Origin: Xylanibacter ruminicola 23
GTDB taxonomy: Bacteria > Bacteroidota > Bacteroidia > Bacteroidales > Bacteroidaceae
DNA length: 32,000 nucleotides
Assembly (NCBI RefSeq): GCF_000025925.1
Contig: NC_014033.1
Location: 1,860,001 to 1,892,000, forward strand
Reading direction: 5' to 3'
Positions 1,415 through 25,858 of this stretch are shown here, in pieces (positions within the stretch are counted from its first letter, which is position 1; every line of letters begins with the position of its first letter). Both the position numbers and the translations under genes were made by a program. Below the pieces are notes generated by a model. That model was not told where the DNA came from, made no database searches, and saw only the letters and a list, made by a program, of their open reading frames with translations.

Positions 1415-4400
1415 ATGAGAGAAAAAATTGACTGTTTTTTGCCTTGCAACGACCTTGAGACAGCGCGCGATGTGATAGCGCAAATCAAGGGTAGCAAGAC
1501 TATTCAACATATCTGTTTGCTGGTAAACCAACCCCTTGAGGCCACAGACGAGGCCCTGAGCGATTGCGAGCAAATAGTAGTTAACGACCTGACAAGCAGC
1601 ACAACCCTACAGGCTATTTCAGAACATGCCAAAGCTGATTACGCCCTGTTGCAGATTCGTCCACGACAGATACAGATGGCCAAAGGCACACTCGACCGCA
1701 TGCTGCGTATCGCATCCGATTCGGATGCTGCCATGATCTACGCCGACCACAACGACCTGATTGATGGCAAGCTGCAGCCCCATCCTGTTATCGATTATCA
1801 GATAGGTAGTATCCGCGACGATTTCGATCTGGGCTCGCTCATCCTGGTTAAAACCAGTCTGCTGCACTGCTTTACCATGCAATGCAACGAGCACCCCTAT
1901 CAGTATGCTGCTGTTTATGCCCTGCGCTTGTTCCTGAGTCGTAAAGGCCGTATCTTCCACATTAACGAGAAGCTTTATACCGAGCAGGAGACCGATACAC
2001 GCGCCTCGGGCGAAAAGCAGTTCGACTATGTGAACCCACGCAATCGCGAAGTACAGATTGAGATGGAGCATGCTGCCACCGCCCACTTGGCTGCCATCGG
2101 CGCCAAAATCGACCCCACGTTCTATCGCCGCCCCGACTTTAACGAGCAGGAGTTTGATGTAGAAGCATCGGTGGTTATACCTGTTTACAATCGCGAAAAA
2201 ACCATTTGCGATGCTGTTAACAGCGCGCTGAGCCAGAAAACCAAATTTAAGTATAATGTGATAGTGGTTGATAACCACTCTACCGATAAGACGACCGAGT
2301 TGCTGCGTGGTTTCCACGACGAGCGACTTATCCATATCATCCCCGAGCGTAACGATTTGGGTATTGGTGGCTGCTGGAACATGGCCATCCACGACGACCG
2401 TTGCGGACGTTTTGCCGTGCAGCTGGATAGCGACGACCTGTACTCGTCGCCCAAAACCCTGCAGCAGATTGTAGATACCTTCTACAAGCAGAATGCCGCC
2501 ATGGTGATTGGTTCGTATCGCATGTGCGACTTCGACCTGAACACGCTGCCACCAGGACTCATCGACCACGCCGAGTGGACGGATGAGAACGGACCTAACA
2601 ATGCTCTGCGTATCAATGGTCTGGGTGCGCCACGCGCCTTCTTCACCCCACTGCTGCGCCAGGTTGGATTCCCCAACACCTCGTATGGCGAGGACTATGC
2701 GTTGGGATTGATTTTCTCGCGCCACTACCGTATCGGTCGTATCTTCAGCGAACTTTATCTCTGTCGCCGCTGGGGTGGCAACAGCGATGCAGCCCTCTCT
2801 ATCGAAAAGGTAAACGCCAACAACCTGTATAAGGACCAGTTGCGCTCGTTAGAGATTATGGCGCGCCAGCAGATGCTGCAGGGCAAGCAGGAAATGCTGA
2901 ACGATTCGCCCCTGATGCGATTCTTCAACCGTCAGTTAGAGAAGTGGGATGATGCCCGTCGCCGCTATCACGACCTGCGCAACGTGAAGACCCGCGAGTT
3001 GTCGGTAGGCACTTCAACCATGAAGGTGCAGTATAACCCCGCCCGTATCGTATCAACAGGCGCTAAGATTGACAAGCAGACACTGGCCGAGCGCCCCTGT
3101 TTCCTGTGCGAGCAGAATCGCCCCAAGGAGCAGGTTAAGAAATCTATCGATGGACAGTTCGACCTGCTGGTCAACCCCTTCCCCATCCTGCCCATCCACT
3201 TTACCATTCCATCGGTAAAGCACGAGCCGCAGTTGATTCGTAATGCCTATGGCGAGATTCATAAGCTGCTTACCGAGTATCCACAGATGATGGTATTCTA
3301 TAACGGACCAAAGTGCGGTGCTTCGGCTCCCGATCACGCCCACTTCCAGGGTGGCACATCAGGTGTATTACCCCTGCAGATGGCATGGGGCCGCTTGTCG
3401 CGCAGTCTGAAACCCATCCTGGAGCTGAATAACGAGGAGGGCATCTCGCTGATTGAGGAGTATCCCTGCCCCGCCCTGCTCATCCACAGCAAAACGCAAT
3501 ATGGCGACGAGCAGCTGTTCCGTCGTTTGTACGAGTCGCTGCCCATTAAAGAAGGCGAGCCCGAGCCAATGCTCAACATCGTAAGCTGGCGAAACGATGC
3601 CGATTACTACTCGGTGGTATTCCCCCGCGACAAACACCGTCCCGACTGCTACTACAAGGAGGGCTGCGAGCAATACATCATATCGCCAGGTGCTCTGGAC
3701 ATGGCAGGTTTCATCGTTACCCCACGTAAGGAGGATTTCGATCGCATTACCCCCGAGGTAGCCCTGGGCATACTTAACGAAGTATCGCTGCCAGCCGATG
3801 CGCTTCAACAGGTTATCGAACGCCTGAGAGCTACTCAAAATTCAATGGTCAATGGTCAATGTTCAATGAAAAAAGAGCCAAACGTTACCGTGGGTATCGT
3901 CAGTGGCGAAAAGATATCGTTCAGCCTTAACAAACCTTACATGGCTAAGGGCGAGGTGATTACCGGCGACCAGGTAGTTGAGTTTAGCGATGGCGGTATT
4001 CTGTGGCGTGGCACCCAGTATCGTAACCTGACATTTACCCCACAGACCGACGATGCCTCGTTCTCGCTCAACGATGTGACTATCGGCGTTAACTTCCACT
4101 GGGAGCGCAAGGAAACCCAGACCTTCGAGGGTACCCTGCGCATTGTGGTTGAGGCCGATAAGATTGTGGCCATCAACGAGTTGCCGGTCGAGAAGTATCT
4201 TACCAGCGTGATATCAAGTGAAATGAGCAGCACCTCGAGTGTTGAGTTCCTCAAGGCCCACGCCGTTATCTCGCGTTCGTGGCTGCTGGCACAGATTGAG
4301 AAACGCAAACAGCACGAAAGCGGTGGCGACAATTTCTTCTCGTTTACTAAGAGTGACCAGGAGTTTATCCGCTGGTACGACCGCGAGGATCATACCATCT

Positions 4401-5089
4401 TTGATGTATGTGCCGACGATCACTGCCAGCGTTACCAAGGCATCACCCGCGCCAACAACACCCATGTTGAGGAGGCTATCAGCCAGACTCGCGGTCAGGT
4501 GCTGATGTATGGCGACGAGATTTGCGACGCCCGTTTCTCAAAGTGCTGTGGTGGTCAGACCGAGGAGTTCCAATACTGCTGGGAAGATACCCCTAAGCCA
4601 TATCTCGTTTCGTTCCACGATCCTTACTGCAACACCAGCGATAAGCACATCCTTTCGCAGGTACTCAACGATTTCGATCAGGAAACCCCCGATTTCTATC
4701 GTTGGACGGTAAGCTACACCCAGCAGGAACTGTCGGAGTTGGTAAACCGCAAACTCAAGATCGACTTTGGTACCATTACCGACCTCATCCCCGTTGAGCG
4801 TGGCAAGAGCGACCGTATCTGGAAACTCAAGATTGTTGGTACCAAAAAGACCCTCACCATCGGTAAGGAGTTGGAAATCCGCCGTGCCCTGAGCGAGAGC
4901 CACCTCTACTCATCAGCCTTTGATGTTGAGAAAGATGGCGATAAGTTTGTGCTTAAAGGCAAGGGCTGGGGCCATGGTGTTGGCTTGTGCCAGATAGGTG
5001 CCGCTGTGATGGGCGAGCAAGGTCATCCTTACGATGATATCCTGCTGTTCTACTATCGCGGTGCCCAAATCAAGCGCCTCTACGATTAA
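1415..5089 (+). CDS. Triple-domain cell-envelope protein: family-2 glycosyltransferase + HIT/GalT-like (DUF4922-type) domain + SpoIID/LytB domain
   Basis: One uninterrupted 1224-codon frame. The GT-A/GT2 part has [32 protein letters not shown] and QLDSDD. The middle domain carries an HxHxQ box ([10 protein letters not shown]), as in GalT-branch HIT proteins. The C-terminal part begins at [14 protein letters not shown] and has SpoIID-type motifs ([29 protein letters not shown]). Confidence 0.8.
3841..3868. repeat. Heptamer micro-array, 4 units (ttcaatg gtcaatg gtcaatg ttcaatg), translated in frame as SMVNGQCSM
   Basis: Exact 7-nt phasing read directly from the sequence. The last ATG (3866-3868) is the Met that opens the SpoIID-type domain. 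Confidence 0.9.
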
Positions 5090-5094
5090 AAATA

Positions 5095-5122
5095 TTTCAT
5101 GTTTAATGTTTAATGTTTCATG
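5095..5122. repeat. Heptamer micro-array, 4 units (tttcatg tttaatg tttaatg tttcatg); the last ATG is the ampG start codon
   Basis: Read directly. It fills the 30-nt gap between the stop at 5087-5089 and the ATG at 5120. Confidence 0.9.
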
Positions 5123-6388
5123 AACAATAAGAATCCTTGGGCCTGGGTGCCCACCCTTTACTTTGCCGAGGGCGTTCCCTACGTAGCTGTGATGACCATC
5201 TCGGTTATCATCTACAAGCGCCTTGGTTTGTCGAATACCGACATCACGCTCTACACCTCGTGGCTCTATCTGCCTTGGGTTATCAAGCCCCTTTGGAGCC
5301 CGTTTGTAGACATGTTACGAACCAAACGCTGGTGGATACTCAGTATGCAGATACTGATAGCTGCAGCCCTGGCAGGTGTGGCTTTTACCATCCCGGGACC
5401 GTTTTGGCTGCAAGGCTCGCTCAGCTTTTTCTGGCTGTTGGCCTTTAGCAGTGCCACCCACGATATTGCTGCCGACGGCTTTTATATGTTAGGACTGGAG
5501 CAGCACGAGCAGGCCTATTTTGTGGGCATCCGTTCCACGTTCTATCGCATAGCCACCATTTTCTCGTCGGGCTTGCTGGTAGGCTTGGCAGGTGTGTTGC
5601 AGGTGCTCACCCGTAGCATCAGCTATGCCTGGAGCCTGGTGTTCTATCTCATAGCCGGTCTGTTTATCGCCTTGTGGCTCTATCATAGCTGGGCACTGCC
5701 CCGCCCCAGCGAGGACACCCATCGCATACAGAAAACCGCTGCCGATATCATCACCGAGTTCTGGAACACACTCGTAACCTTCTTCCAGAAACCACAGGTA
5801 TGGGTAGGCATCTGCTTTATGCTGTTCTATCGTATGCCTGAGGGACTGCTGGCAAAGGTATCGGCTCTGTTCCTGGTTGATAAGATGGCCAATGGCGGTC
5901 TGGGCCTGAGTGATGTAGAGTTTGGTATGGTTCAGGGTACCGTAGGTGTTATCGGCCTTACCTTAGGTGGCATTTTAGGTGGTATCGCCGCCAGCCGCGA
6001 CGGACTTAAACGTTGGCTGTGGCCTATGGTGATGGCTATCACCATTCCCGATTTGGTATACGTATATCTTTCGTGCGCCCTGCCATCCAGTCTGCTTATC
6101 ATCAACATCTGTATCTTCTTAGAGCAGTTTGGTTATGGTTTTGGTTTCTCGGCCTATATGCTATACCTTATATATTATAGTCAGGGCGAGCACAAAACAG
6201 CCCACTATGCACTGTGTACCGCTTTCATGGCCCTGTCGATGATGATACCAGGATTGTTTGCCGGTGCCCTGCAAGAGGCTGTGGGCTATCGTGCATTCTT
6301 CGTGATCGTCGTGGTTTGCTGCGTGATGACCTACATCGTTGCCAGCTTACTGAAGATCGATCCCGAGTTCGGAAAGAAAAAAGAGTAA
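5120..6388 (+). CDS. ampG: AmpG-family MFS muropeptide permease
   Basis: 422 aa, about 12 hydrophobic segments, and an N-terminal WVPTLYFAEGVPYV ... SWLYLPWVIKPLWSPFVD signature typical of AmpG/PAT-family permeases. It is tightly linked to the upstream cell-wall gene. Confidence 0.8.
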   Translation: MNNKNPWAWVPTLYFAEGVPYVAVMTISVIIYKRLGLSNTDITLYTSWLYLPWVIKPLWSPFVDMLRTKRWWILSMQILIAAALAGVAFTIPGPFWLQGSLSFFWLLAFSSATHDIAADGFYMLGLEQHEQAYFVGIRSTFYRIATIFSSGLLVGLAGVLQVLTRSISYAWSLVFYLIAGLFIALWLYHSWALPRPSEDTHRIQKTAADIITEFWNTLVTFFQKPQVWVGICFMLFYRMPEGLLAKVSALFLVDKMANGGLGLSDVEFGMVQGTVGVIGLTLGGILGGIAASRDGLKRWLWPMVMAITIPDLVYVYLSCALPSSLLIINICIFLEQFGYGFGFSAYMLYLIYYSQGEHKTAHYALCTAFMALSMMIPGLFAGALQEAVGYRAFFVIVVVCCVMTYIVASLLKIDPEFGKKKE

Positions 6389-6394
6389 TTTTTA

Positions 6395-6489
6395 GGCACG
6401 GATTACACGGCTTTAATTATATTAAAACACGGCTTTAGCATCGCAACTAAGGCCGTGTTTCTTTGTAAAAGAGCCGTGTAATCCGTGCC
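6395..6489. terminator. Nested palindrome filling the convergent ampG/cysE intergenic gap (probable bidirectional terminator / REP-like element)
   Basis: The outer arms are 18 bp and perfect: ggcacggattacacggct (6395-6412) and agccgtgtaatccgtgcc (6472-6489). The inner hairpin is 9 bp: aaacacggc (6425-6433) / gccgtgttt (6452-6460). Confidence 0.6.
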
Positions 6490-6493
6490 AAAT

Positions 6494-7414: not shown

Positions 7415-7438
7415 ACTTACAACGTTAAAGTTCGGGGG

Positions 7439-7518: not shown

Positions 7519-8445
7519 CTACAATCTGATTCCGTACTTAGCTATCCGCTCCTCCATCATTCCTTCGGGCATGAATCGGAGGAGCGTTTTTGTGATGGTA
7601 TTCAGCATGGCCTGGCGGATGTAGTCCTCGCGGATGTAGAGCGATACACGGCGCTGCGACAGATAATCGCCCTCGATGCGGCGCACATTCTCGCGCTGTG
7701 CATCAGAAAGGAACGGCAGGTGCATCTCAGGGATAATGGTAAAACCGCCATTCTCGTCAACAATGCGTATCAGGGTATCGATACTGCCAGCCTCGTACAC
7801 CCTGCGGCCCTTGGTGCGCGCCTTGCAAAAGCTGAAAGCACTATCGCGCAGGCACTGGGCATCGCGCATAATCCACATTTGTTCGTGCTCCAGATTCTCG
7901 GGATGGAACACGGGCAGCTTGCGCCAACAATCGGCCGAGAGATACACCATAAACCGCTCGGTATAAAGCGGTATCTCGAGTATGCCCGGGTGTGCATGTC
8001 CGCCAGTGGCGATAGCACCATCGATATGTCCCTGCTGCAATTCGGCCTGAATGGCATCGCCCTTAAGCTCGATGATGGAAAGTCGCACCTGCGGATAATC
8101 CTCGGTATAAAAACGGATAAACTTGGGCAGGATATAAGGCGCGATGCTGGACACAACGCACAGGCGCAGATCGCCAGCCACGTCGCCCTTGTCTTCGCTC
8201 ACCAGCTCGTTGATTCGCTCGGCCTCAGCGATGGTACGCTCGGCCTGACGGATAATTTTCTCGCCGGCAATCGCGGGCGTAACACTCTTGTTGCTACGCT
8301 CAAAAATGCGCACGTCGAGTTCGTCTTCCAACTTTACCAACATGGCACTCAGGGTGGGTTGCGAAATGCCTAAGGCGTCGGCAGCCTTGGCAAAACTGCG
8401 GTAGCGATCGATGGCTACAATGTACTTAAGTTGCTGTAATGTCAT
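7519..8445 (-). CDS. oxyR: LysR-family redox regulator, OxyR-type
   Basis: N-terminal LysR HTH (MTLQQLKYIVAIDRYRSFAKAADALGISQPTLSAMLVKLEDEL). It also has a Cys pair in the OxyR context: DAQCLRDSAFSFC here versus E. coli DGHCLRDQAMGFC (C199/C208), with the same 9-residue spacing. The start is taken at the ATG at 8443-8445. Confidence 0.75.
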   Translation of the reverse strand: MTLQQLKYIVAIDRYRSFAKAADALGISQPTLSAMLVKLEDELDVRIFERSNKSVTPAIAGEKIIRQAERTIAEAERINELVSEDKGDVAGDLRLCVVSSIAPYILPKFIRFYTEDYPQVRLSIIELKGDAIQAELQQGHIDGAIATGGHAHPGILEIPLYTERFMVYLSADCWRKLPVFHPENLEHEQMWIMRDAQCLRDSAFSFCKARTKGRRVYEAGSIDTLIRIVDENGGFTIIPEMHLPFLSDAQRENVRRIEGDYLSQRRVSLYIREDYIRQAMLNTITKTLLRFMPEGMMEERIAKYGIRL

Positions 8446-8529: not shown

Positions 8530-8583
8530 CACCGTGAAATAATAAAAATGGTAAAAAGGTAACTATTTAATAAGGTAAAAAGT

Positions 8584-9300
8584 ATGGCTAAAAATTTTCA
8601 TCGACACTTTAAAACGCCAGGTAAGCCACTCTACTGGATTATCATCGCCTACATCCTGCTGGGATGGTTTTTCCCAGTGATTGGTCTGGTGGCAATCATC
8701 TGCATGATTGGTCCGGTGCTATTCAGTATCTGGAAAGGACGATGGTGGTGCGGCAATGTTTGTCCGCGCGGCAATCTGTACAGCCGACTGCTGTCGAAGT
8801 ATTCCCCCCACCGCGAGATACCTAAGTTTGTACGCACCTTCGGGTTCCGATTGTTTATGGTGTTCTTTATCTTCACCATGTTTGGCATACAGCTGAGCTT
8901 TGTGCCCTGGAGCGAGGGCGGACTGCCCATGTGGGCTGGCATCGGTAAGGTGTTCTGGACCATCATTGTGGTAACCACCATCGTGGGTGTGGCGCTGGCA
9001 TTCATCTATGCCCCACGCACCTGGTGTACATTCTGCCCCATGGGAACCATCTCGAACTGGGTATCGCCCAAGCACGCACCACTGCCCAAGGCATTTACTA
9101 ATGTACACGTATCGAGTGCCTGCCAGATGAAGTGTAAGAGCTGTGCCCGCGTATGCCCCATGCAACTCACCCCGTACGACTCACGCGGTCAGGAATCGGG
9201 CTATCTGGATGCCGACTGCATTAAGTGCGGCAAGTGCACCCTGGCCTGCCCCACGAAGATTATGAGCATGAAACATGAAACATTAAAGATTAAACATTAA
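8584..9300 (+). CDS. Membrane-bound 4Fe-4S polyferredoxin (NapH/MauN-like)
   Basis: Four hydrophobic segments with CxxCP boxes (CGNVCPRG, CTFCPMG) plus two ferredoxin-type clusters (CQMKCKSCARVCP, CIKCGKCTLACP). The last 10 codons (MKHETLKIKH) are encoded by a heptamer array. Confidence 0.75.
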   Translation: MAKNFHRHFKTPGKPLYWIIIAYILLGWFFPVIGLVAIICMIGPVLFSIWKGRWWCGNVCPRGNLYSRLLSKYSPHREIPKFVRTFGFRLFMVFFIFTMFGIQLSFVPWSEGGLPMWAGIGKVFWTIIVVTTIVGVALAFIYAPRTWCTFCPMGTISNWVSPKHAPLPKAFTNVHVSSACQMKCKSCARVCPMQLTPYDSRGQESGYLDADCIKCGKCTLACPTKIMSMKHETLKIKH

Positions 9301-9308
9301 ACATTAAT
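9267..9308. repeat. Heptamer micro-array, 6 units (catgaaa catgaaa cattaaa gattaaa cattaaa cattaat)
   Basis: Read directly. It is the reverse-complement flavour of the 5095 array, and it contains the stop codon of the polyferredoxin gene. Confidence 0.9.
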
Positions 9309-9336: not shown

Positions 9337-11694
9337 CTAAAACTTGATATCGAACTTATATTCGGGGATTATTTCTACGTTCTGGATATCTACCACAGGG
9401 CCGTGTTCGAAATTGGGCACGGCCTTTTTGGGCAGATCGCCTAAGAAGGGAGCGTTGGCACGCAGCGGACGGAAATAAAACGTCAATGGATCGGTCTTAA
9501 GATCATCGGCATAGCGTTTCAAGCCAATCGTCCAGGGCTCGCCATGATAGAACTCATCCTGCACCAGCTGGCCCTTCATAAAGGCCATAGCCACATCGCC
9601 AACATAGTGGATGCGGAGGAAAAACTCTGACGCCTCTCCCCCTGCCCCTCTCCAAGTAGAGAGGGGAGTTTTTACTGATACCGACATGCGGCGGGGACCT
9701 GCTTTTGTTACCTCGAACTGGGGCGTAACAGGTGCTACGCTAGCTGCCAGAGCCTTAAAGCCCTGCTTGCTGGGATAAACCACATAGCTTACCTGATGGT
9801 TACCAAGGCTTAGCAGCGTGGCGCCATTGGCTGCAGGCAGCACGGTGGCATCGGTAATCAGCAGTTTGCCGTTTACCTTGAGTGCGTTCAGCGCCTGCTG
9901 GCGGGTAAGCGTGGTTACCTTGATGGTGCGACCAGAAGCCGTTTTTAAGGCAAAAGTACTCTTAAAACCTGCAACAGGCTTAAAAAAATGCTTTCCCTTT
10001 ACGGTGGTGGCATCAAACAGATATTCGGTAGCCATACCATCGGGCGCAAAGAAAAAATAATGCTCGGCATCACCATCCTTCAGCTTTGTAAGCAGCTGTG
10101 CGGTGGCGTATTTCAGCAACGCACCATCCATATCGAGATTGAAAGGCAGGATAACACTCTGATCCTTGCCAAGCGTAAAACCTCCCTGAGCGGGAATGTT
10201 TAATGTTTCATGTTTCATGTTTAATCTAACCTGCAGGTTAGTCTGATCGTGGCGCAGGGTGTCGTGGTCCTGAAAGTTAACCATAAACAGGAATCCGCTA
10301 CCATCCTTGATGCGGGCGGCATAGCGCAGATGGTCGCGATTGTCGGGTGTCATCTGCTGCCAATCGGCAGGCAGAACGGGCTCCATAGGCGCCAAAACAT
10401 CGCCGAAATCGGCCAGGAAAGTGTGCAGCAGTCGCAAGTTACGATACATCTTACCCTCGAGTCCGAACTCACCGATAGGTGCCTGAAAATCGTAGCTAAT
10501 CTTGGGCATACCCATGGGCTCATCGTTAAACGAACCCACCCCACCTATCTGCTTGGGCGTGCTACCACCATGATACATGTAATAGCCAATGCCATTGCTA
10601 CCGCTACCCAAGGTGCGCACCATCAGGCCCTCGGCTGCCTGAGCCGTTACTATCGGACGGGCGCCATAAATCATCTGGATACCAGCACCCATCTCGGCAC
10701 AGAACGAGGGGTAATCGGCAGGGTTATAACGTGTAGGCGCATAATCGGCCTCCTTGGTTAAATCCTTAAACATCAGGAATTTCGACATATGAGGCTTAGC
10801 CCAGAAGGGATAGGTATAGGCCGCTGTAACGGGGATGGCCTCGCCCTCGATAACAGCCGCATTACCCCACCCTGTGGCGGTGTAGAAAGGCACATCGATA
10901 CCAGCCTCAACAGCCATCTTTTTAAGCAGCTGCATGTGCAGGTTACCCATCTCGGCACCAGTAGCCTTACGCGCCTGGTTGCCCACACCAATCATGGCCT
11001 CGCCGGCATTGTAGCTGGCAGCCGTGTTATCCTTGGGTTCGCCGGCATAGGTAATGGCCCAAGGGGCAGCCGAATGCTGCATCTCGTTCTCAACCTGACA
11101 GCCGATAATCGGGCCACCATCCTTGTAATACAGGCCTTGCAACTGCTTGCCAATCTCGGTATAGAGTCGCTTAACGATTTTCAGGTATTCGGGATCGTTA
11201 CTACGCACCTCAAGAGGTTTGGCAAACAGCCAATCGGGGAAACCGCCACTACGAATCTCGCCATGGCAGAACGGACCGATACGCACAATCACAGCCATAT
11301 TGTGCTTTTTACAAAGCTCGATAAAGCGGCGCAGATTGCGCTGACCGTCCCAACGGAACTGGCCCTCAACCTCCTCGTGCAGGCTCCAGAACACATAGGT
11401 AGGGATAACAGTTACACCACCCGCCTTCATCTTCAAGATTTCCTCCTCCCACTGCTCGGCCGGGTAGCGACTGTAGTGGAACTCGCCCATCACGGGGATA
11501 ACAGGCTTGCCTGCCATCGACATATAAAAACTGTTTACATCGATACGCTCGCCCAGCGGGTTTACGCCACCCATGCGCAGGTGGTTACTACGTATAAGCT
11601 TAGGCTGTGCTGGCTCGTTAAGCTGGTACACCTGCTGTGCCTGTACCGCGGCACAGAACCCCAACGCTAACATCACGAATATCTGTCGTTTCAT
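9337..11694 (-). CDS. GH35-family beta-galactosidase, secreted
   Basis: Signal peptide MKRQIFVMLALGFCAAVQA. GH35-type catalytic region (GEFHYSRYPAEQWEEEILKMKAGG, IGPFCHGEIRSGGFPDWL, GCQVENEM). Length 785 aa. Confidence 0.8.
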   Translation of the reverse strand: MKRQIFVMLALGFCAAVQAQQVYQLNEPAQPKLIRSNHLRMGGVNPLGERIDVNSFYMSMAGKPVIPVMGEFHYSRYPAEQWEEEILKMKAGGVTVIPTYVFWSLHEEVEGQFRWDGQRNLRRFIELCKKHNMAVIVRIGPFCHGEIRSGGFPDWLFAKPLEVRSNDPEYLKIVKRLYTEIGKQLQGLYYKDGGPIIGCQVENEMQHSAAPWAITYAGEPKDNTAASYNAGEAMIGVGNQARKATGAEMGNLHMQLLKKMAVEAGIDVPFYTATGWGNAAVIEGEAIPVTAAYTYPFWAKPHMSKFLMFKDLTKEADYAPTRYNPADYPSFCAEMGAGIQMIYGARPIVTAQAAEGLMVRTLGSGSNGIGYYMYHGGSTPKQIGGVGSFNDEPMGMPKISYDFQAPIGEFGLEGKMYRNLRLLHTFLADFGDVLAPMEPVLPADWQQMTPDNRDHLRYAARIKDGSGFLFMVNFQDHDTLRHDQTNLQVRLNMKHETLNIPAQGGFTLGKDQSVILPFNLDMDGALLKYATAQLLTKLKDGDAEHYFFFAPDGMATEYLFDATTVKGKHFFKPVAGFKSTFALKTASGRTIKVTTLTRQQALNALKVNGKLLITDATVLPAANGATLLSLGNHQVSYVVYPSKQGFKALAASVAPVTPQFEVTKAGPRRMSVSVKTPLSTWRGAGGEASEFFLRIHYVGDVAMAFMKGQLVQDEFYHGEPWTIGLKRYADDLKTDPLTFYFRPLRANAPFLGDLPKKAVPNFEHGPVVDIQNVEIIPEYKFDIKF
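9645..9673 (+). repeat. GC-rich hairpin plus T-run (terminator-like palindromic element) embedded antisense inside the GH35 ORF
   Basis: cccctctc (9645-9652) pairs with gagagggg (9659-9666), then agttttt. On the coding strand it is translated as ..PLSTWRGAGGEASEF.. Confidence 0.6.
10192..10240. repeat. Heptamer micro-array (5 units) abutting a perfect 14-nt palindrome taacctgcaggtta, inside the GH35 ORF
   Basis: The units are gggaatg tttaatg tttcatg tttcatg tttaatc (10192-10226), then the palindrome at 10227-10240. Translated on the minus strand as NLQVRLNMKHETLNIP. Confidence 0.9.
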
Positions 11695-19349: not shown

Positions 19350-19371
19350 CGCCAAATAACGACTAACAACG

Positions 19372-22300
19372 ATGAACTTCAAACAAACCCTCATACTGTG
19401 CCTGCTCAGCATCAGTAGCATGCTATCGGCACAAAACAAGATTCTAACCAACAGCCGCCATATCAGTTCGGCCGATGGCCTGCCAAGCAATCAGATATTC
19501 GACATGACACAGGATGCCGACGGCTATATCTGGATGGCCGCCGCCAACGGCTTGTGCCGATACGATGGCTACCACTTCTACAACATCTATAACCTGGGGC
19601 CCGAAAGCGACCCTATCCATGGCGTGGTGGGCTACGTGTTCCCCGACGACGATAAGCGCCACCTGTGGATGCGCACCAGTACCTACGTGTATTGCTGTTA
19701 CGATCTGCATGCAGGCTGCTTTATCGACTTTACCAACAAAGGCGACCATGCCCGCACCTATCGCAGATTTATACGTGGCAAGCAGGGTGTGGTATGGATG
19801 TTCGACGATGAGAGCGGTGTGCGCCGCGTAAAGGGTAATACCGACGGCCCCGTGAACTGTACCGACTATACCAAGGCTAATGGCGGACTGCCCATCAACC
19901 ACGTGAACGACGCTTTCGAAGATACACAGGCCCGCCTGTGGGCCATGACCTCATCGGGCATCACCATCATTGATGCCAAAGGCAAGGCGCGCACCATTGC
20001 CAAGGGCATCTTCTTCCGTCGCGGCATACAGATTGGCCGACAGATGCTGGCACTGACCAACACTGGACTGGTTTACACCTTCGATGAGCAGGGTCGCGAA
20101 TTGCGACGCATACCCATCGCTGCCGACGTGAACAATATCAATATGGTAACCGCCAGTTTCCAGTGGCACGGTTGCTGGATGATTATGACCAACAACCAGA
20201 CGATTATGGTTAACCCCAAACAGGGCACTGCAGCTGCCACCGAGCAGTATCACGTGCGTAGCGGTGCCGTGATGGAAGGATTGACCAACGACGATAACTA
20301 CTTTGTGAGCAACAGCACAGGTATACTGTACGTGTTCCCCGCCCAGGGCGACATGCGCGTGCTGAACCTGATGCAGGGCGTGAAATCAACCGTTGAACGT
20401 TTCCGTCGTTATAATATTAAGAAAGGTGCCGACGGCCAGTACTACATTGCCAGCTATGGTAACGGTCTGTTTGTGTACGACATCCAAAACGACCGCCTGC
20501 AGCACTATTCGGCCACATCGCCATGGGCTATCGTAGGCAACAGCTATCTGAACAACATCCTCATCGACCGCAGTGGCTGCATCTGGCTGAGCGAGGAGTC
20601 AACAGGACTCACCTGTATTCTGCCTCCCGACAAGACCAACGCCGACTATTTCTACCCGCAACCCAACCGTAAGGGCGATTGGAGTAATTTTGTGCGTATG
20701 GTAACCTACACGGGTGGCAACCGCGTACTGCTGAGCACGCGCGACAACATGCTGTACGAGCTGAACCCCACCTCGTGGCAAAGCGCCACAGCCACCACGC
20801 TGCCTGCTGCTGTTTACGCTTATTACAAGGACAGTCATGGCCACCAGTGGATGGGCACTCGCGGTGGCGGATTGTACATCGATGGTAAGCCCATCGAATT
20901 CCCATCCAGTCAGATATACGATATTACCGAAGACCCATTAGGCCGATTGTGGATTGCCACCTGGGGCGACGGACTGTTTGTGGTGCGCCTGGAGGCCGAC
21001 GGACTGCTGAACATCACACATCTGATGAAGCGCTCGTACAACGAGAGTCTGATACGTATCATACGCGCCGACAACCGTCACCACTACTGGCTGGCCACCA
21101 ACAACGGCGTGTATCATATCGATATGCTGAAGAAAACGCTGACCGACGACGATTTCATCAGTCATAACATCCAGCACGGCGACTTCCCCTTCGACGAGAT
21201 CTCATGTCTGATGCCCGACTCGGCTGGCAACATCTGGGTAGGCGGTCGTGGTGGTGGCTTGCAGAAGTGCCGCTACCAGGATGGCAAGTTCAGTATCCAG
21301 CAGGGCTACACCACCCACGATGGTTTGATTACCAACAATATCCTGAGCGTAACCTCCGACCGTCAAGGCAACGTGTGGGCAGGTACCGACAACGGCATTA
21401 CCTGTATCCGCAAGGATGGCAAGGTAAACTCGTATCAATTCGGTCATACACTCGAGAGCAACATCTATAGCGAGAACAGTACTGCTATGCTGCCCGATGG
21501 ACGACTGCTGTTTGGTACAGCCTACGGTATGATGATTCTGGAACCAGAGCGACTGAATGCCAGCACACCCGAGAAGGCTGGTCGACCCATCATCACCATG
21601 GTGAGCATTGATGGTGTGGCACGTTACCTTACCACCAGCGACCGCCGATTGGTACTGAGTCACGACCAGAACTCTATCGAATTAGGATTCTCGAACCTCG
21701 ACTATGCCGGCATCGCCTCTACCCAATACCGCTATTATATGGAGGGATTGGAACACGACTGGCGACAGCTTACCAGCGACAACAGTGCCCGCTACAACGG
21801 GTTGCCACCAGGCACCTACCAGTTCCACCTGAGTTCGCTGAACAAGAACAACCAGTGGAGCGAGGAGTATGTGTTTACGGTGATTATCCGTCAGCCTTGG
21901 TACAACACCTGGTGGGCTTGGCTCATCTACCTGTTTATTATTGGCATACTGTGCTGGTACTTCTACCGCTCATGGCGACGTAACTTCGAACTCGACCAGC
22001 AGATACGTGTGGAGAAAGAGCTTACCACCTTCCGTTTGAACTTCTTTACCCACATCGCCCACGAGTTCCGCACACCATTGGCCATCATCAGCGGTGCCGC
22101 CGACAAGCTCACCCAGAAGGGTAACGATACACAGGTATCGCGTTCGGCCGTGCAGACGGTGCGCCGAGGCACGCTGCGACTTACCAAACTAGTTAACCAG
22201 CTGATGGAGTTCCGACGTATCAACACAGGTAACCAGCGTTTGGCTGTGGTTGAGGACGACATCATCAAACTGGCACGTACTACCTGCGACGAGTTCCGCG

Positions 22301-23586
22301 AGGTGGCAGCCCGCAAGGATCAGTCGCTCACCTTTACCCCATTCGCCCATCAGCACCGACTGACGTTCGACCCGCACTTGATCGAGACCATTCTCTACAA
22401 CCTGCTCTCGAATGCTATCAAATACACCCCACAAGGTGGCAGCATCAGTCTGAAGGCCAAGCTTTCCGACGATCAGCAGCAACTGCAACTGATAGTAGAG
22501 GATAGTGGTCCTGGCATCAGCGAGCTGCAGATACCACAGCTCTACCAGCCCTTTATGCACGGCTACGTATCGCAAGGTGGTATGGGCATCGGATTGTACA
22601 CCGCCTATCAGTCGGCTCTGCTCCACAAGGGACGTTTAGCCTACGAGCGCATTGCTGCCGAAGGTGGCTCGCGTTTCATCGTTACCATCCCCGCCACTGC
22701 TGATGTTTATAGTGCCGACGACTATGCCGGCAGTACCGCCGTGAACACCCAGTACGAGCCCGAGCCTACGCCCGACCATATCCGTGAGCTGGCCCCCGTG
22801 GCCTTTAACGAGAACTATACCGTGGCTATCATCGAGGACGATCCCGACATGCTCGACCAGATTCGTGAGAGTGTGGGTCGCTATTTCCGTACCATCAGTT
22901 ACACCGAGGGAAAGAAGGCGCTGAGCGATATCGGCGAGCAGCAGCCAAGTCTGATTCTGTGCGATGTGATGCTGCCCGATGTAAACGGCTTTGAGATTGT
23001 GCGCCAGCTGCGTGCCAATGAGGCTACACGCAACACACCGATGATTATGCTTACCGCACTGGATGGCGACGACCAGCTGCTGCGTGGATACAAGGCCGGC
23101 GCCGACGACTATATGGTAAAGCCATGCAACTTTGAACTGCTGGTACTGCGCATTACCCAGCTGATTCAGTGGTACGGCCGCTTACATCAGAATGCACAAT
23201 CGCCAATGGTCAATGGTCAATCTTCAATGGTCAATGTCAATGCCCCCATCATCACCGACGAGGCCGACCAGCGTTTCCGTGAAAAGATGGAAACCATCGT
23301 GGCTCAGCGCTTAGGCGATGCCGACTTTAATGTAGATACCCTCGCCTCGCTGCTAAAAATGGGTCGCACCAAGTTCTATGGTAAGATGAAGGAGTTTACA
23401 GGCATGTCGCCCAATAGCTATCTGCAGAACGAACGATTGAAGCGTGCCGCCGAACTGCTTATCGAGGGCGATCTGAACGTTACCGAAGTAAGCTACAAAG
23501 TTGGTTTCCAATCGCCCACCTACTTCTACAAGTGCTTCAAAGAAAAGTACGGTGTTCCCCCCAGCAAATTCGGGAAAAGCAAATAA
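19372..23586 (+). CDS. Hybrid two-component system sensor kinase/response regulator with AraC output (HTCS), PUL regulator
   Basis: 1404 aa. It has a signal peptide, a periplasmic beta-propeller repeat region and a TM segment (WWAWLIYLFIIGILCWYFY). Kinase motifs: H-box FFTHIAHEFRTPL, N-box YNLLSNAIKYT, G1 EDSGPGI. Receiver domain (VAIIEDDPDM..LILCDVMLP). C-terminal AraC HTH (VSYKVGFQSPTYFYKCFKEKYG). Confidence 0.92.
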   Translation: MNFKQTLILCLLSISSMLSAQNKILTNSRHISSADGLPSNQIFDMTQDADGYIWMAAANGLCRYDGYHFYNIYNLGPESDPIHGVVGYVFPDDDKRHLWMRTSTYVYCCYDLHAGCFIDFTNKGDHARTYRRFIRGKQGVVWMFDDESGVRRVKGNTDGPVNCTDYTKANGGLPINHVNDAFEDTQARLWAMTSSGITIIDAKGKARTIAKGIFFRRGIQIGRQMLALTNTGLVYTFDEQGRELRRIPIAADVNNINMVTASFQWHGCWMIMTNNQTIMVNPKQGTAAATEQYHVRSGAVMEGLTNDDNYFVSNSTGILYVFPAQGDMRVLNLMQGVKSTVERFRRYNIKKGADGQYYIASYGNGLFVYDIQNDRLQHYSATSPWAIVGNSYLNNILIDRSGCIWLSEESTGLTCILPPDKTNADYFYPQPNRKGDWSNFVRMVTYTGGNRVLLSTRDNMLYELNPTSWQSATATTLPAAVYAYYKDSHGHQWMGTRGGGLYIDGKPIEFPSSQIYDITEDPLGRLWIATWGDGLFVVRLEADGLLNITHLMKRSYNESLIRIIRADNRHHYWLATNNGVYHIDMLKKTLTDDDFISHNIQHGDFPFDEISCLMPDSAGNIWVGGRGGGLQKCRYQDGKFSIQQGYTTHDGLITNNILSVTSDRQGNVWAGTDNGITCIRKDGKVNSYQFGHTLESNIYSENSTAMLPDGRLLFGTAYGMMILEPERLNASTPEKAGRPIITMVSIDGVARYLTTSDRRLVLSHDQNSIELGFSNLDYAGIASTQYRYYMEGLEHDWRQLTSDNSARYNGLPPGTYQFHLSSLNKNNQWSEEYVFTVIIRQPWYNTWWAWLIYLFIIGILCWYFYRSWRRNFELDQQIRVEKELTTFRLNFFTHIAHEFRTPLAIISGAADKLTQKGNDTQVSRSAVQTVRRGTLRLTKLVNQLMEFRRINTGNQRLAVVEDDIIKLARTTCDEFREVAARKDQSLTFTPFAHQHRLTFDPHLIETILYNLLSNAIKYTPQGGSISLKAKLSDDQQQLQLIVEDSGPGISELQIPQLYQPFMHGYVSQGGMGIGLYTAYQSALLHKGRLAYERIAAEGGSRFIVTIPATADVYSADDYAGSTAVNTQYEPEPTPDHIRELAPVAFNENYTVAIIEDDPDMLDQIRESVGRYFRTISYTEGKKALSDIGEQQPSLILCDVMLPDVNGFEIVRQLRANEATRNTPMIMLTALDGDDQLLRGYKAGADDYMVKPCNFELLVLRITQLIQWYGRLHQNAQSPMVNGQSSMVNVNAPIITDEADQRFREKMETIVAQRLGDADFNVDTLASLLKMGRTKFYGKMKEFTGMSPNSYLQNERLKRAAELLIEGDLNVTEVSYKVGFQSPTYFYKCFKEKYGVPPSKFGKSK
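23202..23242. repeat. Heptamer micro-array (about 6 units: gccaatg gtcaatg gtcaatc ttcaatg gtcaatg tcaatg) inside the HTCS ORF
   Basis: Read directly. It is translated as SPMVNGQSSMVNVN in the linker between the receiver and AraC domains. Confidence 0.9.
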
Positions 23587-23587
23587 C

Positions 23588-23624
23588 ATTCCCCTCCTTG
23601 AACTGACCAAGGAGGGGAATTTTT
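23588..23624. terminator. Bidirectional intrinsic terminator between the convergent HTCS and amidase genes
   Basis: A perfect 13-bp stem, attcccctccttg (23588-23600) / caaggaggggaat (23608-23620), with a 7-nt loop, followed by TTTT. Confidence 0.8.
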
Positions 23625-24045
23625 AAGGCTGCAGATCAGCGTACTCTTTTGTAACACTCTCGATACACGGGCAGGCCTTCATCGGGTTCAGGTCGTGGTG
23701 ACCTACGATCACCGCCTTGGGGTAACGACTGTGCAACTCGGTTAACAGCTGTCGCAAGGCTGCTTTCTGTTCCGGTGTGCGGGTGTCGGCTGGCAGATCC
23801 AGACAGTTCAAACCGCCCTCGTAGCACACCCCGATAGAGTACTTATTGTGGTTCTTGCAGTGTGCCCCAACCATCCATTCCGGCCTACCCTGCTCTATCT
23901 GTCCGTTACGACGCACCACGTAATGGTAGCCAATGCCGAGCTTAAAGCCTCGCTGGCGATGCCAGGTATCTATCTGGGCAACCGAGGATGTCTGGTTGGT
24001 TCGCACTGCCGAACAATGAATCACGATGAGGGTTATCGTCCGCAT
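23623..24045 (-). CDS. N-acetylmuramoyl-L-alanine amidase (Amidase_2 / AmpD-PGRP fold)
   Basis: 140 aa. LIVIHCSA..., GIGYHYVVRRNG, VGAHCKNHN.SIGVCYEGG and GHHDL..KACPC fit the zinc amidase_2 motif pattern. Confidence 0.8.
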   Translation of the reverse strand: MRTITLIVIHCSAVRTNQTSSVAQIDTWHRQRGFKLGIGYHYVVRRNGQIEQGRPEWMVGAHCKNHNKYSIGVCYEGGLNCLDLPADTRTPEQKAALRQLLTELHSRYPKAVIVGHHDLNPMKACPCIESVTKEYADLQP

Positions 24046-24179
24046 GACTGCACAGCAATAGTTCCCAGAACTGTTGTAATCACTGTTGCCACAAATCGCA
24101 ACACCTTAGCTACTCTATTCCAATTTACTTTTACCATAAAATCTACTTTTTAATACGTTAATAATCTTTTTCACAACCA

Positions 24180-24736
24180 CCCAACCCTCCTTCATCCTAA
24201 GGAGTTTTTCCATCACCCCCTAGCCCCCTCTTCATAAGATGGAGTCTCGACTCTTTTCCCCACCCCTTTCCCTATCCCAGGAAAAGGGGCTTAACCGCTC
24301 CTCCTGTCGCTCTTTCATTAAGGTACGCTCAGGGCATCAAAGCCCTGGCGTGTTTTTCCTTAATGGGGGCCAGCCCCCAAACCCCTGTTCGAAAACATTC
24401 TTGCGTCCCTTCGGTAGCAAGCGAGCAGAGCTCGTAACCGCACTTCGTGCTTCATGTTTACTCACTACGTTCGAAAACATTCCGCACGAGGAGGTCTTTA
24501 GAGGAATGCAAATTCTTTGAATCGATATTGAGTCTCAGATTGCCCTCTGGCAATCTGAGCAACGAAATACGAGAAGCTGTTTGAGCGGAGCGAGTTCTTC
24601 GAGTGATTTGAAGAATTTGTGTTCCGGCCTCCGAGCTCAGGACGTTTTCGCACTCTTTCTTTTGCTTCGGTTTTCTTTCTGGTGACAGAAAGAAAATGAA
24701 GGAAGGGGGTTGCAGGGGGCTTCCCCCTGCTATGGC
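24180..24736. other. Long structured non-coding region (candidate ncRNA or decayed repeat cluster)
   Basis: There is no credible ORF. Hairpins lie at 24316-24365 (8+4+6 bp), 24534-24559 (11 bp), 24671-24696 (10 bp) and 24712-24730 (8 bp). A 14-nt direct repeat, gttcgaaaacattc, occurs at 24387 and 24469. Confidence 0.3.
24671..24730 (-). terminator. Tandem hairpins downstream of the HU-like gene
   Basis: gcaggggg-ctt-ccccctgc (24712-24730) starts 7 nt after the stop, followed by ttttctttct-ggtgac-agaaagaaaa (24671-24696). Confidence 0.5.
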
Positions 24737-25309
24737 TTAGTCACCAATTGGTTCAGTACCGCCACCTGAGGTATTACCGCCACCACCTGTGTTACCACCA
24801 TTGCTTGGTGTGCTACCACCACCGGTAGAAGGTGAGTCATTCTCCGGCTCTGGGCGCAGCGAGGTGTCGTGAGTCTCCTCAAACACCACATCCTTCAACA
24901 AGGTCTTGGCATTCACATACTTCTGAACCACCTTACCGTTCTTCTCTGCAGAACCGGTTACGATACGCTCCACCTCGGGCTGGAACAGCACACGACGAGA
25001 GGTGATGGTGCTCGCAGTACAATTGTTGGCGTCGGACACACCGATACTCGAGAATCCTACCTTGAAGATGCCGATACCTGACAGACGAATCTTCTGTCCC
25101 ATCTCCAGGAAGTGCTTCATAGCAGCTCCCAGCTCGTCGAGAGCCGCCTTGATGTCGCTACGCTTCAGCGTGGCCTGTGTCTGGATAAAGTCGGCAATCT
25201 CGTCGGTCTCGATAAACTTCTGGTCGTACACTGGCTGTGCGTAGTACTTCAGATAACTCTTCGCATTGTGAGAGTTCATGTTCTGTGTCTTGATAAATTT
25301 CTGTGACAT
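24737..25309 (-). CDS. HU-like DNA-binding protein (Bacteroidales HU_HIG type) with Gly-rich tail
   Basis: 190 aa. The core LDELGAAMKHFLEMGQKIRLSGIGIFKVGFSS resembles the HU/IHF fold. The C-terminal tail is low-complexity: GGGSTPSNGGNTGGGGNTSGGG. Confidence 0.7.
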   Translation of the reverse strand: MSQKFIKTQNMNSHNAKSYLKYYAQPVYDQKFIETDEIADFIQTQATLKRSDIKAALDELGAAMKHFLEMGQKIRLSGIGIFKVGFSSIGVSDANNCTASTITSRRVLFQPEVERIVTGSAEKNGKVVQKYVNAKTLLKDVVFEETHDTSLRPEPENDSPSTGGGSTPSNGGNTGGGGNTSGGGTEPIGD

Positions 25310-25368
25310 AATGATTAATGTTTAATGTTTAATGTTTAATGTAAAATGGTTATGGTTTATGGTTCGTG
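25310..25368. repeat. Heptamer micro-array (about 8 units: aatg attaatg tttaatg x3 taaaatg gttatg gtttatg gttcgtg) abutting the HU-like start codon
   Basis: Read directly. It begins at the base after the CAT (ATG) at 25307-25309. Confidence 0.85.
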
Positions 25369-25608
25369 AGCGGGGGTGATGTTGGGGTGGATGCTGACGT
25401 TTCTACAGCTCGAAGCTCAGTCACTTTGCGGTCGAAGATGAGTTACTTTCCCCTCCTAAACTATCGTCGGAACAACGCGTAGTTGACTTCGGAACGGGCA
25501 GAAGATAACGTTCGGACCACCCAAAACTATCATGGATCACTTGCCTTACCGAGTACAAAGATACAACATTCTGAAATACTACTGGCGCACTATGGCGCAC
25601 TCGGGCGC

Positions 25609-25833
25609 TCACGGCTTAACTTTTATGATTTTTCTCTTAGGTAGGTCGATATCAAGCTCTTTGCTCAGATATTTTACGGCCCATGGCGGTAACAGTCGCG
25701 CTTTAGGACCAACGCCCATGGCAGTGAGCGCAGGCTGATGCAAACTAATCCAACGAGTAAAAGTACGTCGTGGAGCACCCACCATAGCTCGTAGCTCCTT
25801 CTTATAGTACGATCTTACTTCTAATTCTTCCAT
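25609..25833 (-). CDS. Small DUF4248-like HTH protein
   Basis: 74 aa. YYKKELRAMVGAPRRTFTRWI...LLPPWAVKYL resembles the small proteins that sit between HU-like and VirE-type genes in Bacteroidales. Confidence 0.55.
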   Translation of the reverse strand: MEELEVRSYYKKELRAMVGAPRRTFTRWISLHQPALTAMGVGPKARLLPPWAVKYLSKELDIDLPKRKIIKVKP

Positions 25834-25858
25834 AATGTTTAATATTTAATTTTTAATG
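25834..25858. repeat. Heptamer micro-array (aatg tttaata tttaatt tttaatg) abutting the DUF4248-like start codon
   Basis: Read directly. It begins at the base after the CAT at 25831-25833. Confidence 0.8.

Follow-up and report, generated by a model that had tools for sequence, protein, structure and literature searches.

Seven heptanucleotide arrays in 32 kb of Xylanibacter ruminicola 23, probably slippage-driven microsatellites at gene junctions and in coding tracts

The seven arrays and their settings

A stretch of 32,000 nucleotides (nt) from the rumen Prevotella-like bacterium Xylanibacter ruminicola 23 (contig NC_014033.1, positions 1,860,001 to 1,892,000; the whole stretch is referred to as the window) carries seven short tandem arrays whose unit is seven nucleotides long. 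The unit is of two kinds, TTTMATG and KTCAATG, and the arrays are found at the edges of genes, between them and within them (Table 1). They are probably heptanucleotide simple-sequence repeats (SSRs), that is microsatellites with a 7-nt unit, driven by slippage and surviving where they are tolerated. A dedicated function is not required by the data.

The preliminary description of this DNA had reported arrays at seven loci, and direct reading together with Tandem Repeats Finder (TRF) bears this out, with period 7 and 3.6-5.9 copies at each of the positions claimed. As read, the arrays span 3842-3868, 5091-5122, 9267-9307, 10195-10225, 23204-23242, 25309-25342 (with the second unit up to 25364) and 25833-25857. 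That they are far from chance, as was also said, is amply supported when chance expectation is taken from 100 dinucleotide-preserving shuffles of the window. With up to 3 mismatches allowed, (TTTMATG)3 matches 14 times, overlaps counted, at 5 loci, the expectation being 0.01, and (KTCAATG)3 matches 7 times, again against 0.01; six of these are at the two KTCAATG loci and the other is a 3-mismatch match on the TTTAATG array at 25321. The excess is one of period 7: a scan of the window gave 5 strong runs there, while periods 4-6 and 8-11 yielded nothing and period 12 a single run. An artefact of assembly, for which a check had been proposed, is excluded because the arrays recur in independent assemblies. 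The identical GH35 protein is on an NCBI isolate assembly (GCA_019973335.1, contig BPTT01000001.1) and on the Logan assembly of SRR4090641, and the same arrays are present in both of these and in scaffolds from rumen metagenomes at ENA and JGI; it is from rumen metagenomes that the closest relatives of the window come.

Four of the seven arrays involve spacers, which are estimated to make up ~9% of the sequence. The array at 5095 occupies most of the 30-nt spacer between the stop codon (5087-5089) of the open reading frame (ORF) ending in SpoIID and the start of the MFS transporter gene, and the ATG that closes it (5120-5122) is where the MFS gene is called to start. Between the convergent Fer4 and GH35 genes, the array at 9267 encodes the final 11 Fer4 codons and their stop codon (TAA 9298-9300). 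Two further arrays adjoin minus-strand start codons, that at 25310 the start codon of the HU-HIG gene, whose Pfam match runs from residue 1, and that at 25834 the start codon of an ORF of 72 amino acids (aa) for which no Pfam match was found. Within ORFs, the minus strand of the array at 10192 reads TTA AAC ATG AAA CAT GAA ACA TTA AAC ATT, which is LNMKHETLNI of the GH35 beta-galactosidase, and the array at 23202 encodes SPMVNGQSSMVNVN, the linker from receiver (REC) to AraC-type helix-turn-helix (HTH) in a hybrid two-component system (HTCS) protein, where Pfam places Response_reg at aa 1151-1261 and HTH_18 at aa 1324-1402.

Two arrays had been said to end on a start codon or a domain-initial methionine, two to begin beside minus-strand start codons, one to contain a stop codon and two to lie in inter-domain linkers. 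The start codons at 25309 and 25833 are where the description put them, as is the TAA that terminates the Fer4 ORF within its array. Position 5120 is indeed the MFS start, but Met 3866 is no gene start and belongs to the linker of an ancestral fusion. Likewise 23202 does separate two domains, but 10192 is inside a BetaGal_dom2 match.

Table 1. Arrays and genes of the window, with repeats found in related loci
Feature	Position	Strand	Units, setting or basis
KTCAATG array	3841..3868	+	TTCAATG GTCAATG GTCAATG TTCAATG; in frame in ORF 1415-5089; DUF4922-SpoIID linker
TTTMATG array	5095..5122	+	TTTCATG TTTAATG TTTAATG TTTCATG; SpoIID-stop/MFS-start junction
TTTMATG array, 6 units	9267..9308	-	CATGAAA/CATTAAA on plus strand; between convergent Fer4 (+) and GH35 (-)
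TTTMATG array, 4 units	10192..10226	+	TTTAATG TTTCATG TTTCATG TTTAAT; inside GH35 ORF
KTCAATG array, ~6 units	23202..23245	+	one unit of 6 nt; in frame in HTCS ORF 19372-23586
Composite array	25310..25364	+	TTAATGA/TTTAATG, ~5 units (25310-25345), then ATGGTTT x3 (25346-25364)
Degenerate TTTAATG array	25834..25858	+	TTTAATA TTTAATT TTTAATG
RlmN	239-1312	-	Pfam and called genes
GT2-DUF4922-SpoIID protein, 1224 aa	1415-5089	+	Pfam and called genes
MFS transporter	5120-6388	+	Pfam and called genes
Hexapeptide-repeat protein			between MFS transporter and LysR-type regulator
LysR-type regulator	7519-8445	-	Pfam and called genes
4Fe-4S (Fer4) protein	8584-9300	+	Pfam and called genes
GH35 beta-galactosidase	9337-11694	-	Pfam and called genes
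SusD	11782-13782	-	Pfam and called genes
SusC	13820-17116	-	Pfam and called genes
Rhamnogalacturonan-lyase-like protein			between SusC and HTCS
HTCS	19372-23586	+	Pfam and called genes
Amidase	23623-24045	-	Pfam and called genes
HU-HIG protein	24737-25309	-	Pfam and called genes
72-aa ORF	25618-25833	-	
VapE-like protein	25938-27332	-	Pfam and called genes
Mini-element variants	L009:3003, L009:3352, L143:6874, L144:7647, L125:4015, L125:(-)6457		related loci
Mini-element variants, viral	L217, L219, L221, L222, L224, L228, L230		viral loci
31-nt higher-order repeat, x2	L137:5424-5485		94% relative
31-nt higher-order repeat, x3	L138:2213-2305		94% relative

Arrays compared across relatives

The comparison covered about 90 orthologous rumen loci overall. 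Counting of units between strains, which the preliminary description had proposed as a check, reveals polymorphism in whole units. At the Fer4/GH35 array the window has 6 units, and two relatives at 97% identity (L003 and L004) have 10 between identical flanks, the difference being exactly 28 nt, or four units. The four extra units shorten and alter the tail of the Fer4 protein, from one ending in ...KIMSMKHETLKIKH in the window to one ending in ...KIMSMKH in these relatives.

The junction between the SpoIID stop codon and the MFS start codon could be followed more widely, in 80 orthologues from rumen metagenomes that were collected by means of the MFS protein and in a few other loci. In many of 76 lineages it is a compact overlap, tATGAATAA (ATGAATAA), or a short plain spacer, and in 17 of the 76 it has a period-7 run, with at least 8 different units represented. 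TTTAATG is the unit in the window, L003, L129, L134-138, L140/141/143 and L195. Elsewhere it is TTCAATG (L191), AAATAGT (L149, L203), ATTATGA/ATTATGC (L165, L198) or AACTTTG (L163); L128 has TAATTCC plus CAATTNT units, and the array of L142 is of period 8. Many of these arrays terminate exactly at the MFS ATG, and that of L134 extends from the TAA stop codon to the ATG start codon. Certain of the units match the ancestral junction sequence, as ATGAATT does ATGAATA. Among relatives at 94-97% identity the junction arrays vary in unit number and in sequence. The orthologous junction thus keeps one period while its unit is free to change, and arrays have arisen there over and over.

Two other features of junction-bearing loci are recorded here. 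The most similar MFS protein (98%) is encoded in L132 and L133, yet these have a divergent SpoIID 3′ end, the ATGAATAA junction (~20 nt ahead of the MFS match) and no array, which is suggestive of a mosaic that recombined at the junction or close to it. In L197 (7488-7563, 7609-7635) a long (GTTTACR) array of ~11 units has its reverse complement, (GTAAACY)n, 45 nt further on; L203:7479-7526 is also listed with this inverted heptamer pair, and the pair resembles those described for Xanthomonas.

The three arrays inside ORFs, when set beside their counterparts, are orthologous coding tracts whose units change in concert and not insertions of foreign DNA. In the linker between DUF4922 and SpoIID, the window has TCAATGG TCAATGG TCAATGT TCAATG for SMVNGQCSM, L128 has CTCTCAA CTCTCAA TTCTCAA TTCTCAA for LSTLNSQFST, L129 has TCAAATC TCAATTC TAAAATC TCAACT for SNLNSKIST, and L131 has a decayed array. 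A period-7 run is present in 20 of 64 orthologues with 12 different units, and the tract is thus one orthologous stretch in concerted evolution. The possibility that this array marks a point of gene fusion, joining DUF4922 to SpoIID, is ruled out, as nearly all homologues span the junction and the fusion is ancestral. The full 1224-aa GT2-DUF4922-SpoIID ORF is also in the 97% relative L003, and the fusion is not array-caused.

The linker between REC and HTH of the HTCS protein is hypervariable. The peptide SPMVNGQSSMVNVN is restricted to relatives of at least 92% identity, being identical in the closest (99%), and orthologues at 75-86% have unrelated linkers a few residues shorter. In one locus (L213:378-4642) the HTCS is called as two ORFs, of 1202 aa and 213 aa. 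A frameshift, a pseudogene or an error of assembly may account for the split, which falls immediately ahead of the receiver domain.

In the GH35 tract, LNMKHETLNI lines up gap-free with LNLKDETLRIP, a conserved segment of homologues whose identity goes as low as 63%, and such alignment in 44 homologues rules out an insertion into the gene. Its unit in the window is AAACATK. Periodicity holds at 21 of 23 positions (P = 1.3e-6 given LNMKHETLNI and the codon usage of the window), and TTA, a rare codon that makes up 4.8% of those for leucine, occurs twice. A homologue at 71% identity (L215) encodes INMKHETLNI from non-periodic codons, with matches at the 7-nt offset in 11 of 23 positions, and one at 77% (L214) has an orthologous (AAGAATG/T)7, longer by 21 nt, that encodes VRMKNEELRVKNEELRIP. 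Because the synonymous codons chosen maximise periodicity, a homogenising force acts at the level of the DNA even within this conserved coding segment.

In all three ORFs the frame is kept. The in-ORF arrays are unchanged in the 97% relatives whose DNA was read, and the GH35 tract is unchanged down to 89%. Differences in distant lineages are in-frame steps (+21 nt in GH35, in L214; -6 nt or +30 nt in the HTCS), and no frameshifted allele of an in-ORF array was found among the ~90 orthologous loci.

A second coding heptamer array, (AACTGTC)n, is near the C-terminus of GH35 in relatives at 89-92% (L006:12015-12046 and L007:11988-12060); at its counterpart in the window a period scan with a score threshold of 12 flagged nothing. 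The GH35 gene of the window is involved in a further repeat, as 9267-9287 and 10199-10219, parts of two arrays on opposite strands, form a perfect 21-bp inverted repeat (TTTAATGTTTCATGTTTCATG) with 911 bp between, flanking the C-terminal third of the gene. It is probably a by-product of the arrays and not the boundary of an invertible segment, because L007 has the GH35 array without the intergenic partner.

To see where such arrays lie in general, 797 kb of orthologous loci, picked by a protein rather than by repeat, were surveyed for tandem runs with a score of at least 12. Period 7 gave 57 runs, compared with 1 each at periods 5, 6, 10 and 11, 16 at period 8, 8 at period 9 and 7 at period 12. 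Thirty of the 57 are outside ORFs, as against 10.4% of random 30-nt segments, and on removal of the two focal orthologous sites the proportion is 21 of 31. Of the non-coding arrays, 14 of 30 lie no more than 15 nt from where a long ORF starts (14% expected), though this full set is dominated by one orthologous junction and the two focal sites inflate both counts. The bias to non-coding sequence is robust and that to start codons is modest. It had been stated that none of the window arrays lies at a random position, and this holds in the weaker sense of a strong bias to non-coding spacers and tolerant coding segments.

The two kinds of unit differ in what they permit. Pure TTTAATG or CATTAAA units have a stop codon in every frame and GTCAATG read forward has none in any. 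For this reason arrays of the former end ORFs, and the GH35 tract needs mixed A/C variants, while the KTCAATG flavour is found in linkers.

TTTMATG, the commonest intergenic unit, is widespread. With one genome per species, (TTTMATG)3 is present in at least 120 stretches, and among the 120 matches listed 79 are from Bacteroidota by record title, including rumen Prevotella and Prevotellaceae, other Bacteroidales such as Paludibacteraceae, Chitinophagaceae, Saprospiraceae, Flavobacterium and Chryseobacterium; the remaining matches listed include candidate-phyla-radiation bacteria and Cyanobacteria. (TTTMATG)4 is in 39 viral contigs, some of them giant-virus metagenome-assembled genomes (MAGs). 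Arrays in rumen Prevotella reach 100 nt (L104), and the loci found with this unit hold many further heptamer arrays of unrelated units. Given its presence across Bacteroidota, other phyla and viral contigs, TTTMATG is a common AT-rich microsatellite unit and not a lineage-specific signal.

Other repeats of the window can be dealt with briefly. The 308-nt spacer upstream of HU-HIG has, between the two arrays adjacent to minus-strand start codons, a period-10 direct repeat at 25578-25608 (ACTACTGGCGC / ACTATGGCGC / ACTCGGGCGC). Period-8 arrays returned by TRF at two other gene boundaries, 228-262 and 8543-8582 (ATTTGACA and TAAAAAGG), were set aside as weak and degenerate on inspection, and that at 228-262 is really a 12-nt direct repeat (ATTTGACAATTT) with a spacing of 23 nt. 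No Rfam family matched anywhere in the window.

Slippage as the probable origin, and the alternatives to it

The reading as slippage-driven microsatellites, held here with fair assurance, can be set out as follows. Misalignment of strands in a 7-nt register, during replication or repair, would create and remodel the arrays, as unit-step polymorphism and concerted change imply. New arrays would be seeded by local sequence, at junctions likely by the stop/start context, and it is to be kept in mind that TTTAATG contains the classic TAATG stop-start overlap. Units are then homogenised within an array, a concerted evolution shown when species are compared. Persistence is confined to places where harm is small, namely short spacers by start or stop codons, an extreme C-terminus, and inter-domain linkers or tolerant loops, with stop-free readings and in-frame changes alone being allowed inside ORFs. 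The consequences are variable spacers between genes, variable C-terminal tails as in Fer4, and variable linker peptides. All of this is the local expression of a genome-wide tendency of rumen Prevotella-like bacteria, and of many Bacteroidota, to period-7 repeats of many units.

Several considerations weigh against so simple an account. The case for slippage is drawn from comparisons between lineages, and it leaves unexplained why 7 should be preferred to 5, 6 or 10. TTTMATG dominates, at 5 loci of the window, in 10 of the 17 junction arrays and in many Prevotellaceae, which random local seeding does not obviously predict, and selection or a sequence-specific propensity to slip may contribute. 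In addition, non-coding arrays are nearer to start codons than random non-coding segments are; with the focal junction removed, what is left of this is a weak excess, 6 of 21.

Proximity to starts also speaks for the alternative that the arrays are translation elements, either AU-rich leaders or punctuation of stops and starts in which termination in every frame is followed by re-initiation downstream. Three arrays of the window exactly adjoin start codons, and in several Prevotella loci (L009, L102) the final ATG of the array opens a long ORF. Bacteroidota are not known to use Shine-Dalgarno pairing, so an AU-rich leader could matter. The forward ATGs open 4-codon mini-ORFs, MFNV, whose TAA overlaps the ATG two units on, and the mini-ORF from ATG 5106 stops at a TGA that overlaps the MFS start. 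The chain is inconsistent, however, as that from ATG 5099 via 5113 passes the real start out of frame, and the array at 5095, in which TAATG and ATGA motifs are present, is the only one between genes of the same strand. Both orientations occur at starts, one forward and two reverse in the window, with one array between convergent genes and three within ORFs. Across 23 Prevotella loci the tally, from a crude ORF classifier, is ~8 forward and 3 reverse at starts and 12 abutting no start. The MFS start functions in many lineages with the ATGAATAA overlap or a short plain spacer, and the units at this junction are wholly different between lineages, which argues against a sequence-specific binder. 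That arrays serve to keep the start region unstructured was considered and rejected, for among 80 orthologous MFS starts predicted folding energy is -3.3 kcal/mol in the 19 that have an array and -3.0 in the 61 that lack one (p = 0.21). Gene-boundary punctuation or translational coupling, as the preliminary description had suggested, thus finds itself opposed by the two orientations, the array-free orthologous junctions and the absence of a folding difference, and is judged unlikely as the explanation of the arrays; a modest effect on translation of the gene downstream is possible.

A further alternative comes from an element present in the relatives. The 30-nt CGCTCCAGCTCTGCTGGCTTGCAAGGCAAG, made up of two hairpins, interrupts the HTCS linker array in L212 (118-147) and, at a different unit, in L213 (4244-4273), and it also interrupts the C-terminal (AACTGTC)n array of GH35 in L007 (12009-12038). 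In both the HTCS linker and the GH35 C-terminus it inserts in frame, and no target duplication is added, since its removal restores the exact uninterrupted arrays of the window and of L006. A second 30-nt type of the same architecture, CGCTCGGCTTTGCCGCTTGGCTCGTCCAAG with its variants, is in other loci and in rumen viral contigs. Every variant opens with a CGCT(C) head, or CGCC in one case, and continues with a hairpin of 4-5 bp around a loop of 3 nt and then another hairpin of 5 bp; it closes with AAG, after which the flank has AA. The stems differ between variants by compensatory changes, and those of the first hairpin (CGGC/GCCG, CCAGC/GCTGG, CGACC/GGTCG) are fully paired, as are those of the second (CTTGG/CCAAG, CTTGC/GCAAG, CTTTG/CAAAG, TTTTT/AAAAA). 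A scan of 2.27 Mb with a descriptor requiring perfect stems gave 16 unique sites of 10 variants, and none in shuffled sequence; 8 of the 10 have no stop codon in any forward frame. A truncated 17-nt form, CGCTCGGCTTTGCCAAG, makes up together with two TTTAATG units a 31-nt higher-order tandem repeat in the SpoIID/MFS junction arrays of two relatives (Table 1).

The arrays might, then, be products or landing pads of a mobile-element system whose enzyme also generates or maintains period-7 arrays. Half of the sites of the mini-element (8 of 16) are in arrays of period 7-8, where 1.6% of random sites would be, and an identical 30-mer is in the arrays of two genes and at two positions within one array. 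Heptamer repeats and very small mobile repeats are also reported to go together in cyanobacteria. The other half of the copies are outside arrays, however. The window with its 7 arrays has no copy by the descriptor scan, and the 797-kb set has 57 arrays and 2 descriptor matches (L143, L144) plus the 17-nt copies of L137 and L138. Because filled and empty sites differ by a plain 30-nt insertion, with no unit or duplication added, the arrays pre-exist the element, and TTTMATG arrays occur in very different taxa, giant-virus MAGs included. An origin of the arrays from a GC-rich element beside them is ruled out on the same grounds of no window copy and no duplication at filled sites. The suggestion that the arrays are the footprint of insertion accordingly fails in the face of a pre-existing array at these sites, and the wider mobile-element scheme is considered very unlikely.

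No better placed than that scheme, and assigned a slightly smaller chance, is the proposal that the arrays are contingency loci in which gain or loss of one unit shifts the frame or the length of a leader, giving phase variation. Close relatives do differ in how many units they have at two non-coding arrays, a four-unit change already alters the Fer4 C-terminus and, as 7 is not a multiple of 3, a change of one unit would truncate the HTCS, GH35 or fusion-protein ORF. Against this, the in-ORF arrays are identical where relatives are close, the HTCS linker being the same at 99%, and the differences between distant lineages are in frame; on/off alleles through frame switching were not found among the ~90 loci. 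The genes concerned (MFS, ferredoxin-like, GH35, HTCS, HU-like) are housekeeping or polysaccharide-utilisation genes and not the typical surface or restriction genes, and 4-6 units are few for switching at a high rate. Of the slippage-prone contingency repeat that had been envisaged, slippage is supported, by clean 7-nt steps and the period-7 excess, and contingency is not shown.

Chance, compositional bias or assembly artefact, to which the low complexity of AT-rich spacers and the termination of Logan contig L002 within one array might lend some colour, has next to no probability and is already refuted by the numbers of matches, the specificity of the excess for period 7 and the identical arrays of independent isolate and metagenome assemblies.

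Heptamer repeats in other bacteria

The closest described parallel to the arrays in layout is with the TAACTGA repeats, heptamer direct repeats in Beggiatoaceae, Cyanobacteria and five Bacteroidetes (MacGregor 2015, PMC4679880). Copies usually number 2-6, and a genome has many such sets, most of them between genes and often only a few nt from a start codon; the forward unit has stops in all three frames and reverse copies are occasionally in ORFs, at the protein periphery (PMC4679880). Strains differ by what are "mostly indels in 7 nt increments", and other heptamer units occur in the same intergenic regions (PMC4679880). The window arrays share the 7-nt tandem units, the mostly intergenic and start-proximal placement, the stops in every frame of the forward unit, the occasional copy within an ORF, the differences in 7-nt steps and the company of other heptamers. 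They differ in their units, TTTMATG and KTCAATG, and in having no bias to the forward orientation, which is the majority one for TAACTGA. Their host, a rumen Prevotella-like bacterium, is not among the taxa listed in PMC4679880, and conserved or linker segments encoded by arrays with concerted units are a thing for which no description was found in that paper. The regulator-binding role proposed there is not supported for the window arrays.

Heptamer repeats of Calothrix and Nostoc, with GGGGAYT as the Nostoc unit and GGGAATC that of Xanthomonas, show extensive variation in length and sequence among close relatives, their loci being mostly between the same genes (Rehm 2015, PMC4692102). They are, like the window arrays, tandem and mostly intergenic, but they are G-rich and quadruplex-capable, a potential that the AT-rich or TCAA-based units of the window do not have. 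The STRR repeats of Calothrix and Nostoc belong to the same class, and the STRR2 unit, TTGGTCA, would be one base from the window unit ATGGTCA. In the literature no paper was found that describes heptamer repeats in Prevotella, nor one that mentions the source accession. Contingency loci built on SSRs, such as the tetranucleotide repeats of Haemophilus influenzae, are likewise slippage-prone tandem arrays of short units, and where the length of the unit cannot be divided by 3 the frame could shift. The window arrays depart from them in low copy number, lack of out-of-frame alleles, other classes of gene and a mostly non-coding placement.

For the mini-element of the relatives the parallels are different ones. 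Small dispersed repeats (SDR) of Nostoc reportedly nest in heptameric tandem repeats, and they are said to be, as the mini-element is, tiny (20-40 nt), hairpin-forming and dispersed in near-identical copies, with insertion that leaves no target duplication. The same likeness extends to REP/RAYT-type hairpin repeats (PMC3116915, PMC3733652). Sequence similarity to either is not demonstrable, no transposase was identified with the mini-element, and it differs in having copies in frame within protein-coding arrays. It is conceivable, though doubtful, that rumen Prevotella have a counterpart of the cyanobacterial pairing of heptamers with ultra-small mobile repeats, in which one putative enzymatic activity favours 7-nt duplication and moves the mostly stop-free mini-element, with no target duplication, into these arrays and even in frame into protein linkers. 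The arrays would in that event be an engineered substrate, constantly rewriting gene junctions and protein linkers, and not passive microsatellites. The mini-element is itself possibly worth separate study, its link to the arrays being a speculative extra.

The general class to which the arrays belong has been known since 2007. As relayed in PMC4679880 and PMC4692102, Mrazek 2007 found heptanucleotides to be the most abundant among long SSRs of 5-11 nt units and proposed polymerase slippage, and the ten richest genomes, in the account of PMC4679880, are of Burkholderia, two Cyanobacteria, three Actinobacteria and Xanthomonas. The window arrays agree with that class in period-7 excess, sporadic taxonomic distribution and slippage as the likely origin; Prevotella and the rumen Bacteroidales do not figure in the ten as relayed. 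Four features expected of heptanucleotide SSRs are present: at least 3 tandem units beyond chance, enrichment of period 7, whole-unit polymorphism and predominance in non-coding sequence. The arrays are thus ordinary in kind, as heptanucleotide microsatellites, and unusually informative in detail.

Two things seem to be new, that a single gene junction has had a history of many units and that arrays in coding sequence evolve in concert. For the questions of why the most over-represented of the long bacterial microsatellites have a unit of seven and of what they do, the locus and its ~90 rumen orthologues are an unusually clear natural experiment, with one junction empty in many lineages and filled elsewhere with arrays of at least 8 different units. 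Two linkers and a segment of a conserved enzyme are written in heptamers whose units turn over in concert with the frame kept, which shows that in Bacteroidota the dynamics of microsatellites can mould coding sequence and the choice among synonymous codons. Annotation of Prevotella genomes is also affected, since the arrays alter where start sites are called, how C-terminal tails read, where contigs break and which genes appear to be fused.

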